From NCBI GenBank assembly GCA_947570175.1, contig CANOTJ010000001.1, positions 133,027 through 197,026 on the forward strand: a DNA stretch of 64,000 bases. Reading direction: 5' to 3'. The stretch comes from an uncultured Mycoplasmatota bacterium. Lineage in GTDB: Bacteria > Bacillota_I > Bacilli_A > RF39 > UBA660. The notes under the pieces are model-generated. The model made no database searches and was not told the origin of the DNA. It was given only the letters and a program-made list of their open reading frames with translations. This document shows positions 35,786 to 40,701 of the stretch, piece by piece. The translations under genes and the position numbers were made by a program. Positions within the stretch are counted from its first letter, which is position 1, and each line of letters opens with the position of its first letter.

Positions 35786-36745
35786 ATGAAAAAGAGATTA
35801 TTGTTATCAATAGTGGGAGTTATTGGTTTTTTGACAATGGGAAGTGTTGGAGCATCTAGTTTAAAATTAGAATGTCCAACAAATATGAAAATAGGATATC
35901 GTCGTTGTCAATTGGTATTAAATTCGGATTCTACAGAAGTAGAGAAAATTTCTATAGACTATCAATTGAGTAATCAGATAAAAATTGAAAATATTATTTC
36001 CAATGAAAAGGAAGGATGGACACTTGTAGCCCCAACTTCTTCCTTAAATAATGGAACTTGGACATACGAAAACAGTTCTAAAACGACTGGAAAAACAACC
36101 CTTGGAGAAGTTGAATTTCAAGTGGCAACAGCAGGAAATTATACATTTGAGGTTAAAAATGCTGTTTATTTACAGAAGAATTCAGGGACAAGTGGTACTT
36201 CAGATACCAATTTGTTAGGAAGTCATTCATTAGTATTTGCTGATCATGTTGCGATTGAAAATCCATCAAATCCTGATTTAAGTTTAAAGTATTTAGAAAT
36301 AGATGGAATAGAATTGGGTTCTTTGAATGGTGTAGCTACTATTAGTACTAAAAAAGATTCAGTTACAATTCGTGCGATGGCAAAAGAGGGTGTTGTCATT
36401 AATATCGGAAAATATGGTATAGAACTTGGAGGAATTAATCATATAGCTGATGGTACTTTGTTTTTAGAAGAAGGAAAAAATGAATTTTTAATTTATGTTT
36501 CTAAGAAAGATGGTAATGGTGAATCCACATCATATCAATTGATTATGGATAAAAAATCTGAAACAACTACTACAGTGGATACAAATAAAACAACAACGAA
36601 AAATAATAATCAAATAAAAACATCCGCTAATACAGTTGTAAAGAATCCAGCAACTGGAGATAACTTTATTCAATATGGATTTGCTATCGTTTTATTACTA
36701 ACAACTATAATAATAATTAAAAAGAAAATTACAAAGTTAAATTAA
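35786..36745 (+). CDS. secreted cell-surface protein with a sortase-type C-terminal sorting signal (NPATG variant)
   Basis: Signal peptide, then beta-rich domains. The C-terminus has NPATGD, a hydrophobic helix (FIQYGFAIVLLLTTIIII) and a KKKITK tail. Confidence 0.65.
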   Translation: MKKRLLLSIVGVIGFLTMGSVGASSLKLECPTNMKIGYRRCQLVLNSDSTEVEKISIDYQLSNQIKIENIISNEKEGWTLVAPTSSLNNGTWTYENSSKTTGKTTLGEVEFQVATAGNYTFEVKNAVYLQKNSGTSGTSDTNLLGSHSLVFADHVAIENPSNPDLSLKYLEIDGIELGSLNGVATISTKKDSVTIRAMAKEGVVINIGKYGIELGGINHIADGTLFLEEGKNEFLIYVSKKDGNGESTSYQLIMDKKSETTTTVDTNKTTTKNNNQIKTSANTVVKNPATGDNFIQYGFAIVLLLTTIIIIKKKITKLN

Positions 36746-36764
36746 TAAAGGGAGCAAATAACAT

Positions 36765-38363
36765 ATGAAAGAGTTTTTAATAAAACAACATAAAAAAATT
36801 ATAATAGTGCTCGTTTTACTAGTATTTGTGGTAGGGCTAATCTATGTTATTATAAATAGAAATAGTATTAGTTTCTTAAAGATAATGGGAAATAGTTTAG
36901 CGGATTTAGAAGCACAATACATGTGTGAAGAAGGATATGCACAAAAAGGAACTGAATGTATTAAAGAAGAGTCTATTGAAGCTAACAGTATAGCTAGTTG
37001 TGAAGCAGGGTTTAATTTAAATTCTAGTACTGGAAAATGTGAAAAACAGGAGGAAACTGTAGTTTCTACTCAATATAAATGCCCAGATGGATATAAAAAT
37101 AATGCTGGTAGATGTGAACAAATTATTCAAAAGGAAGCTACTTCATCTAAACAATGTCCTACTGGATACACATATAAAAAAGAAAAGGATGAATGTGAAA
37201 CAACTGTTTCACAGCCATTGTACTCAAGAAATACGATCTATACTTGTGAAGGTGACTATACTTTAAAAGATGGAGTTTGTGTAAAATTCAAAACAAGGAA
37301 AGCTGTTAAAGTTAATAGTTGTGAGTCGGGGTATAAATATAATAGTTCGACAAAATTATGCGAGAAAAAAGATTCAATAGCTCCAACTACGGTTCCAAAT
37401 CAATGTGATGCTCCTGGTAGTTATGATGGACATCCAGGTAGTCCAACAGAAGGTTCATGTGTGTATTCTGCATGTTCAGATGGCTATGTTGGAATAGGCG
37501 AAAAATGTTATAAATTATCTGGAACTTTAAAATTTAATGGTAATTCAACAGGAACGAATGTTTCACCAGTTACAGTGTCCAAAGGAAGTATTACAACTTT
37601 AACTCCTAGTCAAGCAACTTTTGGTAAAACAACAATTAGTTGTTCTAATGGAAGAAAATTGAAGAAGACCAATGTAGAAAGTGTTGATGCTTTTCACAAT
37701 AAGTTTCCTTATTTAAGACTTTTTACTACTTATAAATCTTCAGGAATGAATAATTGGGCAATTGTTGCATGTACAGATGGTAGTACGCAAAATTTAAAAA
37801 CGGTCAAAAATGGTTACAGTAGATTTAAAGGTTATTATATAAAGAAACCATTTACTAGTTATACCTGTAAAGAAGGATATAAATATAATAGTCAAAAGAA
37901 AAAATGTGAACGAACAAGAACTTCTAAGCCGGTTGAGACTTATAGTTGTAGTACAACTTATTCTGCCTATGATGGATATGTATATAATGCTAAATCAAAT
38001 CGATGTGAAAAAAATATCACTAAAAAACCAAAAGTAGAGTTACAAAAGAATTCATGTGCTGGAGAAGAAAAAGATGGAGCATGTATTATTAAACAAATAG
38101 CAAAGCCTCAAATGGGAGGGGATTGTAGTCAATATCCAAATGCTACTTATAATTCAAAAACATCGAAATGTGATCAAATAGTTACAGTGAATGCAACTAC
38201 AGAATATGGGTGCCCAGAAGGGTATACCCAAGCCGGAAATCGTTGTATAAAAAATACAGAGAAAGATAAGACTGTAACTTATAGTTGTCCAGAAGGATAT
38301 ACATTGGATGGAAACATGTGTAAAAGAGAGATTATTAAAACAGGAATATTACAAGAAGGCTAA
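36765..38363 (+). CDS. N-terminally membrane-anchored protein built of paired-cysteine C-x2-G-Y-x(n)-C mini-repeats
   Basis: One TM (IIIVLVLLVFVVGLIYVII) followed by 30 cysteines, 28 in 14 close pairs (e.g. CPDGYKNNAGRC, CESGYKYNSSTKLC, CPEGYTQAGNRC) plus 2 isolated in the middle. No family was recognised. Confidence 0.6.
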   Translation: MKEFLIKQHKKIIIVLVLLVFVVGLIYVIINRNSISFLKIMGNSLADLEAQYMCEEGYAQKGTECIKEESIEANSIASCEAGFNLNSSTGKCEKQEETVVSTQYKCPDGYKNNAGRCEQIIQKEATSSKQCPTGYTYKKEKDECETTVSQPLYSRNTIYTCEGDYTLKDGVCVKFKTRKAVKVNSCESGYKYNSSTKLCEKKDSIAPTTVPNQCDAPGSYDGHPGSPTEGSCVYSACSDGYVGIGEKCYKLSGTLKFNGNSTGTNVSPVTVSKGSITTLTPSQATFGKTTISCSNGRKLKKTNVESVDAFHNKFPYLRLFTTYKSSGMNNWAIVACTDGSTQNLKTVKNGYSRFKGYYIKKPFTSYTCKEGYKYNSQKKKCERTRTSKPVETYSCSTTYSAYDGYVYNAKSNRCEKNITKKPKVELQKNSCAGEEKDGACIIKQIAKPQMGGDCSQYPNATYNSKTSKCDQIVTVNATTEYGCPEGYTQAGNRCIKNTEKDKTVTYSCPEGYTLDGNMCKREIIKTGILQEG

Positions 38364-38396
38364 TCATTTGATTAGCTTTTATAAAAGGAAGATAAT

Positions 38397-39083
38397 ATGC
38401 AAAATATAATAATTATACTATTTGTTTTAATACCAGTATTATTACTGATGTATTATGTAAATCAAAGAGATACCGTTGAAAAAGAACCAATTCTTTTAAT
38501 TATTATTATGATGATACTTGGAATGGCAAGTGTATATTTTAGTAAACAGATTTGGAATTTTATTCTTTCTAAACTTCCAGAAATTGAGGAAGAATTAACC
38601 AATCGAAATTGGTATGCTCGAATTCTTACTAGTTATGGCGAAATTGCTTTTGTAGAAGAGATGATAAAATATCTTCTTTTAAATATTATTATTTATCGCA
38701 ATAGAAATTATGACTATATGTATGATGGGATTGTATATTCTGTTGCAATTAGTTTGGGATTTGCCTTAGTAGAGGGGTTAGAATATGGAATGGGAAATGA
38801 TGTTGCTATTAGTTTATTTAGAAGTATTTTAACAATTCCTATGCATATGTCCTATGGAGTAATTATGGGATATTATTTAAGCAAGTCTAAGAATAGTTAT
38901 GAAAATCGTTTAATGTATTATCGTTATACAGCACTATTATTTCCAATTGTATTACATGGTACGAGTGATTATCTATTATCTACTGTTGATAATCCTATTA
39001 TTTATATTGTTTATGCTTTGTTTGTTTATATAATTGCTTTAAAAAGGATTAATGAGTTATCTCGATTGGATAAACGGATTTAA
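38397..39083 (+). CDS. PrsW-family intramembrane protease
   Basis: Multi-TM protein with an EExxK-type motif (FVEEMIKY) and a second His motif (HGTSDY), as in PrsW. Confidence 0.65.
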   Translation: MQNIIIILFVLIPVLLLMYYVNQRDTVEKEPILLIIIMMILGMASVYFSKQIWNFILSKLPEIEEELTNRNWYARILTSYGEIAFVEEMIKYLLLNIIIYRNRNYDYMYDGIVYSVAISLGFALVEGLEYGMGNDVAISLFRSILTIPMHMSYGVIMGYYLSKSKNSYENRLMYYRYTALLFPIVLHGTSDYLLSTVDNPIIYIVYALFVYIIALKRINELSRLDKRI

Positions 39084-39095
39084 TCCTTTTTTAGA

Positions 39096-40127
39096 TTGAA
39101 AAAAATAGATATTTATAATATAATGAAAATGGTGATTCAATTGTTTAAAATTGGAAATATAGAAATGAAAAACCAGGTTGTATTAGCTCCTATGGCAGGA
39201 ATATCCAATCCATCTTTTATGGGTATTGTAACTCAAATGGGATGTGGACTTGCCTATACAGAACTGATTAGTGCGGAAGCAATTGTTAGAAATAACAAGA
39301 AAACTTTTGATATGTTAAAGGGAATAGAAACTTTAACAATACCAGTAGGGGTCCAAATATTTGGAGCTAATAAAGAGGTTTTATCAAAAGCTGCCCAAAT
39401 TATTACAGAGATATATAAAAATGTTTTTATTGATATTAATATGGGGTGTCCAGTTCCTAAAGTTGCACTAAAATCACAAGCAGGGAGTGCATTACTAAAA
39501 GAACCAAGCAAAGTTTATGAAATAGTAAAATCGATTGTAGAATCTGTATCTGTTCCAGTAACAGTGAAAATTAGAAGTGGCTGGGATTCTAATCACATCA
39601 ATGCGGTTGAGATTGCAAAAATGATAGAGAAAGCAGGAGCACAAGCCGTAACGATTCACCCCAGAACCAGAAGTCAGGGATATAGTGGCAATGCGAATTG
39701 GAATATTATCAAACAAGTTAAGGAGAATACTTCAATTTCTGTAATTGGAAATGGGGATATAAGAAGTTGTTATGATGCTAAAAAAATGCTAGAAGAAACT
39801 GGTTGTGATGCAGTGATGATTGGAAGAGGTGTTTTAGGAAATCCCTGGTTAATAAAGGAATGTGTAGAATATATTGCAGAGGGAATTTTACCAAAAACAG
39901 TAAGTGATTTAGAAAAATTACAGATGATTTTACACCATTTGGATCAATTATCTATGTGGAAGGAAGAGAAAATAGTAGTATTGGAAATGCGTAGCCATGC
40001 AGCATGGTATTTAAAAAGGATTCCTGGTACAAGTGAACTAAAAAAGGAAATTTTTAAAGTGAAAACAACTCAGGAATTTAAGAATTTAATTCAAAATTTT
40101 ATAAAGGAGAATTGTTATGAGTGTTAA
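39096..40127 (+). CDS. dusB: tRNA-dihydrouridine synthase
   Basis: Motifs VVLAPMAGISN, DINMGCP and IGRG. The true start is probably internal (ATG 39123 or 39129), judging from the usual M-x-FKIG N-terminus. Confidence 0.85.
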   Translation: MKKIDIYNIMKMVIQLFKIGNIEMKNQVVLAPMAGISNPSFMGIVTQMGCGLAYTELISAEAIVRNNKKTFDMLKGIETLTIPVGVQIFGANKEVLSKAAQIITEIYKNVFIDINMGCPVPKVALKSQAGSALLKEPSKVYEIVKSIVESVSVPVTVKIRSGWDSNHINAVEIAKMIEKAGAQAVTIHPRTRSQGYSGNANWNIIKQVKENTSISVIGNGDIRSCYDAKKMLEETGCDAVMIGRGVLGNPWLIKECVEYIAEGILPKTVSDLEKLQMILHHLDQLSMWKEEKIVVLEMRSHAAWYLKRIPGTSELKKEIFKVKTTQEFKNLIQNFIKENCYEC

Positions 40128-40701
40128 TTTTACAAAAAGAATACTTGCTTATCTAATTGATCTACTTTTCTTAGGTTCAATTATTATATTTATTTATCAG
40201 TTTATTCCAGAACTCAAGGCAGTTACTGATTTACAAACAGATATAGCGGTTTTAAATGAGGAATATTTAAATAGGCAAATAGAGACATCAAATTATTTAC
40301 AAAACTATTCTAATTTGATATATGATGTAGATCAAGAACAAGTCATTTTTCCAATTATCAATTTTATTACTCTCTTTCTTTATTTTGTAATAGTGCCTTT
40401 TCTTTTACAAGGTCAAACTATCGGAAAATATATTATGAAAATTAAGATTGAATCTAAGAAAGAAAAATTATCTATATTTAGTTTAATTGTTCGTAATTTA
40501 ATTGTAAATGGATTAGGTTATTTAATTTTATCCTTTTTAGCATTACTATTTGTTCCAAAAAATATGTATTTATATGTGATAAGTATTTTAGGAATTATTC
40601 AACTAGGACTAGTAATTGCAAGTGCTTTTATGATAATATATAGAAAGGACAAAAGAGGAATACAAGATATTTTAACAAATACAAAAGTTGTAAAAAAATA
40701 G
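40117..40701 (+). CDS. RDD-family membrane protein
   Basis: ILAYLIDLLF N-terminus, three TM segments and a C-terminal KRGIQDILTNTKVV typical of RDD domains. Confidence 0.6.
   Translation: MSVNFTKRILAYLIDLLFLGSIIIFIYQFIPELKAVTDLQTDIAVLNEEYLNRQIETSNYLQNYSNLIYDVDQEQVIFPIINFITLFLYFVIVPFLLQGQTIGKYIMKIKIESKKEKLSIFSLIVRNLIVNGLGYLILSFLALLFVPKNMYLYVISILGIIQLGLVIASAFMIIYRKDKRGIQDILTNTKVVKK

Follow-up and report, generated by a model that had tools for sequence, protein, structure and literature searches.

EGF domains contain six cysteines forming three disulfides; cEGF (PF12662) is the C-terminal half of such domains in complement C1r-type or calcium-binding EGF domains. RsiW of Bacillus subtilis is an N-in single-pass membrane protein, and to our knowledge the only established substrates of PrsW-family proteases are anti-sigma factors. 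The anti-sigma factor RsiW is cleaved by PrsW, which acts as its site-1 protease (PMC3498285). TraN is described in PMC9246713 as an extended beta-rich N-terminal domain followed by a variable 'tip', all cysteines being predicted in disulfides. The element analysed here is the gene of a cysteine-repeat (Cys-repeat) membrane protein of an uncultured Mycoplasmatota bacterium (assembly GCA_947570175.1). It is located in a stretch of 64,000 nt (contig CANOTJ010000001.1, positions 133,027 to 197,026, forward strand), which is called the window in its whole length. The protein is predicted to carry arrays of one-disulfide hairpins related to cEGF on the outside of the cell, and its gene lies between those of a wall protein and of a PrsW-family protease.

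The likeness to cEGF, which is the best or near-best Pfam match, lies in the pattern C-x2-G-[YF]-x-[LY]-x(3-6)-C on a predicted hairpin closed by one disulfide. The units found here differ from cEGF by their two cysteines each, by their abutting arrangement, by their monoderm bacterial host and by a lower score (14.6 versus 26.6 bits); the N-terminal half of EGF, with two further disulfides, is missing from them. TraN contains nearly the same unit (C-E-S-G-Y-x-Y-N-x-S-x-x-x-C-E-K) and has a comparable layout of a cysteine stalk plus a variable domain. The present protein differs from it by the lack of PF06986, by the lack of type IV secretion system (T4SS) genes within about 8 kb of its gene and at a second locus (metagenome contig L025, see below), and by an anchor in the cytoplasmic membrane. 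Uncharacterised Ser/Thr kinases of Firmicutes (P0006, P0064, P0095, P0113) also have a transmembrane (TM) helix followed by hairpin units, with an insertion within the array; here, the kinase domain is absent, the juxtamembrane motif is distinct and the middle domain is another one. As in the RsiW-PrsW pair, an N-in single-pass protein with an extracytoplasmic domain is found with a PrsW-family protease, in this case encoded beside it. In contrast with RsiW, the protein lacks an anti-sigma domain on its cytoplasmic side and no gene for a sigma factor is present; the putative link comes from gene order at 2 loci. The likeness to Sushi/CCP domains and to an insect cytokine peptide (6ee9, stress-response peptide-1) is at the level of a motif (Y-x-C-x-x-G-Y-x-L-x-G). 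Sushi (PF00084) gave no hit for this protein, and has four cysteines in about 60 amino acids (aa) instead of two in about 24.

Architecture and topology of the protein

The gene and the parts of its product are as follows (+, forward strand; the basis of each assignment is given in brackets).

36765 to 38363, +: gene of the Cys-repeat membrane protein, 532 aa, ATG start, stop codon included (open reading frame (ORF) list; 30 cysteines; 70% identical ortholog P0002).
36750 to 36754, +: GGGAG ribosome-binding site, 10 nt before the ATG (sequence read).
36798 to 36854, +: signal anchor or TM helix, residues 12-30, N-in (19-residue hydrophobic stretch preceded by 4 Lys; helix at residues 2-31 in the AlphaFold2 (AF2) model; position of the TM helix in homologous kinases).
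36855 to 36896, +: conserved juxtamembrane motif NRNSISFLKIMGNS, residues 31-44 ([LIVM]M[GS]NS after the TM helix in 8 distinct cluster representatives).
36909 to 37523, +: N-terminal array, 8 Cys pairs, residues 49-253 (the motif is borne by 7 units, and the pair C214-C232 is atypical; recurring three-strand pattern).
37524 to 37850, +: middle alpha/beta domain, residues ~254-362, with the invariant C293 and C336 (AF2 model).
37851 to 38336, +: C-terminal array, 6 Cys pairs, residues 363-524 (3 units are canonical, and in the other 3 the loops are longer or altered).

The cysteines are at residues 54, 65, 79, 92, 106, 117, 131, 144, 161, 172, 186, 199, 214, 232, 237, 248, 293, 336, 368, 381, 395, 414, 431, 440, 454, 469, 483, 494, 508 and 519. 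Twenty-eight of them form 14 neighbouring pairs, 9-19 positions apart, 8 of which precede and 6 follow the segment ~249-367; C293 and C336 are the only cysteines of this segment. The 30 cysteines, the 14 close pairs and the single N-terminal TM helix had been reported in an initial annotation made from the sequence, and were found again; all nine peptides quoted there are present in the protein.

The orientation of the repeats is indicated by relatives. The kinase fusions P0064, P0095 and P0113 consist of a Pkinase domain (residues ~9-259), a TM helix and hairpin units, in this order; P0006, P0008 and P0011 also carry PF00069. Because the kinase domain of these fusions must be cytoplasmic, the hairpin repeats lie outside the cell, as the initial annotation had presumed. 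Lipoprotein signal peptides precede the hairpin units of two other relatives (L013 and L015). Sequence comparison thus supports a type II (N-in, C-out) cell-surface protein with extracytoplasmic repeats. In L015 (G039:C10:22087-25386), three hairpin units are found before a glycoside-hydrolase-like domain (motifs judged by eye). One TGA and one TAA occur in the match region of this lipoprotein, which may therefore represent a broken gene or a pair of genes.

The hairpin unit

The unit is about 24 aa long and contains two cysteines (consensus YTCPSGYTLNGNKC; period of about 24-27 residues). Ten of the 14 Cys pairs bear the hairpin motif C-x2-G-[YF]...C. The motif C-x2-[GD]-[YFW] occurs 10 times; when the ectodomain was shuffled 10,000 times, it was seen 0.32 times on average and at most 4 times. 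A chance pattern or a spurious ORF was ruled out by this shuffle test and by the existence of orthologs. The first 18 homologs provided 158 distinct units, from which a 24-position hidden Markov model (HMM) of the unit was built (consensus ATTTYTCPSGYTLNGNKCYKTTTA). This HMM gives 12 domains in this protein and, among 1322 crude ORFs of the genome (E<=1), detects only this protein and one paralog (C6:40947-42731).

The AF2 model of the whole protein has a mean pLDDT (predicted local distance difference test) of 67.2 and a predicted template modelling score (pTM) of 0.29; the arrays have a pLDDT of 70-88. In this model, DSSP assigns to each unit a short strand leading to the first cysteine, a turn at x-x-G-Y, a second strand of 3 residues and, past another turn, a long strand (examples: residues 74-78/84-86/91-99, 101-105/111-113/116-124 and 478-482/488-490/493-500). 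The first cysteine is located just past strand 1; the second is at position 2 of strand 3, which extends into the next unit. The recurrence of this pattern agrees with the disulfide beta-hairpins that had been proposed at first. From the model, we infer that each unit would be a single-disulfide beta-hairpin that corresponds to the C-terminal half of an EGF domain of the cEGF type. This strand layout is presumably that of the C-terminal one-disulfide sub-domain of EGF-like domains, the N-terminal two-disulfide half being absent.

The Pfam matches of the protein are all sub-threshold (PBCV1_P7, E 0.0067; cEGF, E 0.03 with the scores given above; EGF_Tme5), NCBIfam gave nothing relevant, and neither database has a family of its own for the unit. 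The paralog comes closer (cEGF, 21.3 bits, E 2.4e-4; Sushi, 18.2 versus 20.7 bits), and the cEGF cut-off is passed by the homologs P0042 (33.2 bits) and P0023 (36.7 bits). The resemblance to EGF or furin-type repeats initially put forward is retained in that the nearest curated models, although sub-threshold, are of EGF type; the unit would match one half of an EGF domain and not an entire repeat of EGF or furin type. No bacterial family had been recognised in the initial annotation, and no Pfam or NCBIfam family claims the protein, but the unit itself recurs in 415 cluster representatives, including TraN.

A profile made of 21 units, taken from the window protein and from the paralog, gave nothing significant against PDB sequences (best: factor H Sushi, E 0.017; further sub-significant matches: 6ee9, a 25-aa single-disulfide insect peptide, E 0.027; thrombomodulin EGF5; LDLR EGF). 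The whole protein gave nothing relevant in the PDB sequence search (best E 0.53). Its model has no Foldseek match in the PDB at E<=0.001, and only its TM helix was aligned in the VIA-wide search (Z<=4.6). The best ESM Atlas score (0.80) is to an unnamed cluster and is uninformative. No description of the hairpin module in Firmicutes was found in the open full-text literature (subscription-only papers lie outside this search).

The ectodomain Cys count is even in 7 out of 7 full-length proteins that carry the LMGNS motif (30, 30, 28, 24, 32, 24 and 24).

Distribution of the unit in bacteria

A word-indexed search retrieved 29 proteins at E<=1e-3. The 415 cluster representatives were retrieved by an exhaustive search, 148 of them at E<=1e-10 and 18 at E<=1e-30. 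Family content was counted in the 28 top hits that were scanned.

PF06986 (TraN): 7 of 28.
Ser/Thr kinases: 3 of 28.
RHS-type: 5 of 28.
Big_3_3 / PKD giants: 4 of 28.
PPC / phospholipase: 1 of 28.
cEGF or FOG_N only: 2 of 28.
No family: 6 of 28.

Several tandem units align with a Vibrio TraN (P0019; 35% identity, E 5e-13). One ortholog cluster (P0033, 21 members) bears a 'TraN' label from one source; automatic labels of this kind on Gram-positive proteins are explained by the shared hairpin module. As judged from these sequence matches, the module is widespread in bacteria though uncurated, and is found in N-terminal parts of TraN, kinase ectodomains, giant adhesin-like proteins and lipoprotein stalks. 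A spacer role is suggested because the unit is plugged into TraN, kinase, RHS and Big_3_3/PKD proteins and because its number varies between orthologs. The one-disulfide half-EGF hairpin would then be a compact bacterial module reused as a stalk or spacer, and it merits a family model of its own.

A second family of relatives (P0003, P0007, P0009 and P0012 type; L012, L014) has a conserved N-terminal anchor, a domain of about 100 aa and a conserved C-terminal tail. Many hairpin units are found between both ends in these relatives and none in the copy of the present genome (C9:19712-21082, L023), so that the unit behaves as an expandable insert.

Orthologs, middle domain and packing of the arrays

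The whole architecture is found in P0002, P0033 and P0043. All aligned cysteines are invariant in 4 orthologs, which differ in their number of units. The best-conserved part is the signal anchor with the NRxxIxFxKLMGNS motif, which 8 distinct cluster representatives contain. Between this protein and the paralog of the same genome, conservation is highest over residues 8-57 (50% identity). This paralog (C6:40947-42731, L002; 594 aa, 28 Cys, 8-9 canonical units) has the same anchor and juxtamembrane motif. Its C-terminal part differs and contains two repeats of about 55 aa (YYxPKTGxxHYxxEGSxAxTKSGM...MYWCEDTTV); according to their N-terminal sequences, its neighbours resemble DNA polymerase genes.

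The two middle cysteines, initially described as isolated, are indeed alone in their segment, but they are invariant in the 4 orthologs and probably pair with each other. The middle domain was also modelled alone (AF2, residues 199-372, 4-sequence alignment; pLDDT 76.3, pTM 0.68). It has a mixed alpha/beta composition, C293 and C336 being on model strands 91-95 and 132-145. A homology search with the middle domain only retrieved just the protein itself and P0002.

Pairing of residues 48-252 with residues 360-532 was predicted with a score of 0.33, versus 0.00 for the best of 3 controls, which is weak support. At least 97% of contacts agree between runs, and the partner pLDDT is at least 81. 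In the benchmark of this method, 116 of 157 solved complexes and 2 of 215 mismatched pairs attained the mark; at scores of 0.60 or less, just 18 of the 157 complexes did so, as did both mismatches. The N-terminal and C-terminal arrays may pack together in a folded-back stalk, with the middle domain at its tip, as in models of TraN.

A three-gene cassette

The neighbouring genes of interest are as follows.

35786 to 36745, +: 319-aa secreted protein with an NPATG sorting signal, a C-terminal TM helix and KKK, i.e. a sortase-type anchor (IsdC / LPXTG-type C-terminal matches below cut-off).
38397 to 39083, +: PrsW-family membrane protease, 228 aa (PF13367, 94.3 bits, cut-off 23.5).
40117 to 40701, co-directional with the cassette: RDD-family membrane protein, with an 11-nt overlap with the end of dusB.
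38359 to 38376, no strand assigned: palindromic hairpin (GCTAATCA..TGATTAGC) followed by TTTTAT, 7 pairs including 3 GC, between the Cys-repeat gene and prsW.

On one strand, the order is: class A penicillin-binding protein (PBP1A), wall protein, Cys-repeat gene, prsW, dusB, RDD and lysS. The gaps flanking the Cys-repeat gene are 19 and 33 nt. The PrsW protein also matches NF033739 (E 3.8e-37, 128 bits), under the equivalog cut-off of 225. Promoter-like sites were at background (60 versus 57.8 expected), and 2 terminator-like sites were found for 2.5 expected; from its sequence, the hairpin before prsW may be a weak attenuator.

The same order (wall protein, Cys-repeat protein, PrsW) was found on the metagenome contig L025, with a 395-aa ortholog of the P0033 type that is ~30-51% identical to that of the window in local segments. 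The upstream gene, separated by a 3-nt gap, encodes a secreted protein of 283 aa that has NPKTG, a TM helix and KKK and is homologous over its full length to the wall protein of the window (29% identity by tblastn, 34% by alignment). The downstream gene, after a 25-nt gap, encodes a PrsW that is 65% identical to that of the window. The flanks of L025 are transposase-like ORFs upstream (read from translations) and acyltransferase/ligase genes, on the other strand, downstream, versus PBP1A and dusB in the window. The order of the three genes is shared by these two unrelated contigs, which have different flanks, and is reported here for the first time.

A first metagenome scan gave no related locus. 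The one locus retrieved by a scan of genome contigs (L011) was rejected as a relative: the match is inside a PBP homolog, which the cassette does not follow. A second PrsW, 34% identical, is encoded elsewhere in the genome; in 4 of the 5 family genomes searched, PrsW was not found at E<=1e-10.

Exported cysteine and candidate oxidases

Exported proteins are Cys-free in 70% of cases in aerobic Firmicutes versus 33% in anaerobic ones, according to PMC2823432. In a crude split of the present proteome, 34 of 118 'exported' proteins (29%) are Cys-free, and the Cys frequency is 0.0106 in this set versus 0.0122 in 929 cytoplasmic proteins. Since 29% resembles the anaerobic value, exported cysteine as such is not exceptional in this genome; the protein is still an outlier, ranking second of the 118 by Cys count. 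The depletion of cysteine that had been ascribed to exported proteins of Firmicutes in general is thus mainly a feature of the aerobic ones. The crude exported set shows no bias towards even Cys counts: 42 proteins have an odd number, 42 an even number above zero, and 34 have none.

The initial annotation had advised a search for thiol-disulfide oxidoreductases. No protein of the DsbA/BdbD, DsbB or VKOR type was detected, but two of the five thioredoxin-fold matches in the genome are exported and have a CxxC motif.

C7:52916-53326: exported thioredoxin-fold lipoprotein, CSHC.
C18:15117-15635: exported TM-anchored thioredoxin-fold protein, CGYC.

Their best NCBIfam matches, neither of which reaches the cut-off, are the PedC/BrcD disulfide isomerase of bacteriocin maturation and TrbB. 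On these sequence features, both proteins are candidate oxidases. A surface protein with 15 predicted disulfides, in a gut bacterium of 1.4 Mb that lacks DsbA and DsbB, makes the oxidase question testable with two named candidates.

Interpretation and alternative explanations

The leading explanation, considered somewhat probable, is that of a type II protein in which a disulfide-stapled stalk displays an orphan domain, and which is linked to a wall protein and to PrsW. The hairpin arrays would form a compact, protease-resistant stalk across the wall zone, and the middle domain would be displayed on it as a binding head. The 15 Cys pairs would be oxidised without DsbA/DsbB, either by one or both of the exported thioredoxin-fold CxxC proteins or spontaneously. 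The gene order suggests that the protein could cooperate with the upstream sortase-anchored wall protein and with the downstream PrsW. The juxtamembrane motif NRxxIxFxKLMGNS would be the likely site of PrsW recognition or cleavage, for shedding or turnover of the ectodomain. As there is no anti-sigma domain here, any cleavage by PrsW would shed the ectodomain and not signal. Adjacency to prsW gives a candidate substrate for this protease family; if the link is true, it would be the first class of PrsW substrates other than anti-sigma factors. If the disulfides are formed, they would represent extensive oxidative folding (15 disulfides) in a Firmicute-type anaerobe without DsbA/DsbB. Proof of the PrsW link, or of oxidative folding that does not depend on DsbA, would add to the interest of the system. 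A larger proposal is rather unlikely: the three genes would form a new system for surface display and shedding in monoderm gut bacteria, in which the ectodomain would be released or remodelled by a dedicated PrsW and captured by, or cooperate with, the wall protein, oxidation being carried out by the PedC/TrbB-like thioredoxins.

Several observations weigh against the stalk explanation. Over 176 hits, the whole-protein Cys parity is unbiased (82 even, 94 odd). DsbA, DsbB, VKOR and Thioredoxin_4 (PF01323, PF02600, PF07884 and PF13462) have no match in this 90.3%-complete genome, while the control genomes gave matches, and the habitat is the anoxic gut. Among the other genomes sampled in the family of the source organism, 3 of 24 and 0 of 16 gave a match to the protein, and it was not found in the same-genus genome G001, so that it is dispensable. 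Two of the 5 AF2 models of the middle domain are confident (mean pLDDT 76, 71, 43, 42 and 35). This domain matches no binding domain (best Z 2.8 in the VIA-wide search; best Foldseek E 1.1 in the PDB and 0.19 in BFVD), a weak or absent structural match being no proof of a new fold. The array-pairing result belongs to a class that is more often wrong than right unless the pairing was likely beforehand. The cassette is known from 2 loci only, and the paralog C6:40947-42731 bears the juxtamembrane motif yet does not adjoin a prsW gene.

Among the alternatives, a sensor or signalling protein is unlikely. It would be either a kinase-less repeat ectodomain or the substrate of a proteolysis cascade started by PrsW, ligand binding being relayed inward. 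The TM helix and first units do align with kinase ectodomains (P0064 residues 322-453 versus 7-138 of the query), such kinases make up the 3 of 28 top hits listed above, and the gene adjoins that of a protease of the family of the RsiW site-1 protease in 2 loci; however, with just 11 cytoplasmic residues there is no anti-sigma or other output domain, and the cassette has no sigma factor gene. A related idea, that of a split kinase, was rejected: from its sequence, the kinase of the genome (C9:3659-5587) has a Cys-poor ectodomain (3 Cys in 642 aa) devoid of the repeats, and because this kinase is complete the Cys-repeat gene is not one half of it.

More doubtful still is a TraN-like protein for mating-pair stabilisation or cell-cell adhesion, whose stalk would present a variable tip docking on a surface protein of the recipient cell. 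It would account for the matches to Vibrio TraN and to PF06986-containing proteins, for the label of P0033 and for the parallel between arrays plus middle domain and the stalk-plus-tip layout reported in PMC9246713. Against it, the protein has no PF06986 match at E<=1, and in the TraN hits themselves the best PF06986 stretch does not include the repeats (P0032: repeats at ~459-515 versus 1002-1248; P0019: repeats at 330-540 versus 703-785). The neighbours within ~8 kb are housekeeping genes (PBP1A, dusB, lysS), without T4SS genes. TraN sits in the outer membrane, whereas this protein has a cytoplasmic-membrane signal anchor. The least probable alternative, to which very little credence is given, is that the Cys pairs stay reduced and serve as surface thiols for metal binding or redox buffering. 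The lack of detected DsbA, DsbB or VKOR, the gut habitat and the unbiased parity of the whole hit set would fit reduced thiols, but a spacing of 9-19 residues is not a metal-binding pattern, and neither CxxC knuckles nor His partners are found. The cysteines are moreover invariant in pairs and even in number in the 7 ectodomains, disulfide bonds are predicted for this unit in TraN (PMC9246713), and two exported CxxC thioredoxin-fold proteins are present.

Occurrence of the gene in genomes and metagenomes

The source assembly has 1.38 Mb in 49 contigs (27.6% GC); genomes of relatives of the source organism have 0.8-1.3 Mb. The occurrence of the protein in close relatives is patchy: of 41 genomes, 5, one of which is its own, have matches at E<=1e-5, and G001 has none at this threshold. 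In a phylum-wide sample, 2 of 399 scored genomes have matches; 2 further genomes are unscored.

The gene is contained in gut metagenome runs: 17 rows have at least half of the sampled words, and the runs span 5 studies (runs flagged as a possible source were left out). In a mouse-gut DNA run, the entire stretch of 3.5 kb is found in a single contig with 6 differences; a second gut DNA run has 1 difference. The window protein and P0001, its representative in the database, are distinguished by L198F, which corresponds to the variant 37358 A>T of run X8. None of the listed runs that contain the gene is an RNA run. In runs X18 and X19 (taken as RNA by guess only, DNA being possible), short contigs cover 37144-37326, 37381-37585 and 37807-37969; they are at least 99% alike to the window, except one X18 piece at 95-99%.

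Other cysteine-rich proteins of the genome

A LytR-CpsA-Psr (LCP) protein (C5:57934-59997, L020; PF03816, 140.6 bits) ends in three 4-Cys EGF-like repeats. These repeats (C-x12-C-x-C-x2-G-Y-x5-C) give sub-threshold matches to hEGF, EGF and cEGF, and are a second, different EGF-like module, carried by an envelope enzyme. The highest Cys number of the genome (35) is found in a 1047-aa secreted protein (C1:86478-89621, L021) with no Pfam match at E<=0.01. Two proteins of 979 and 879 aa (C10:7743-10682 and C3:61768-64407) have prepilin-like N-termini (KRGFTLxELL) and 18 and 15 Cys. A 431-aa secreted protein with a Cys-rich N-terminus (C5:28272-29567, L022) has a near-threshold match to T4SS_pilin (25.2 versus 26.6 bits), and may mark a conjugative element elsewhere in the genome. 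Lastly, a 144-aa protein with 17 Cys (C7:50536-50970, L024) has a 56-bit match to CotZ, a spore coat protein (PF10612) that one would not expect in a genome of 1.4 Mb.

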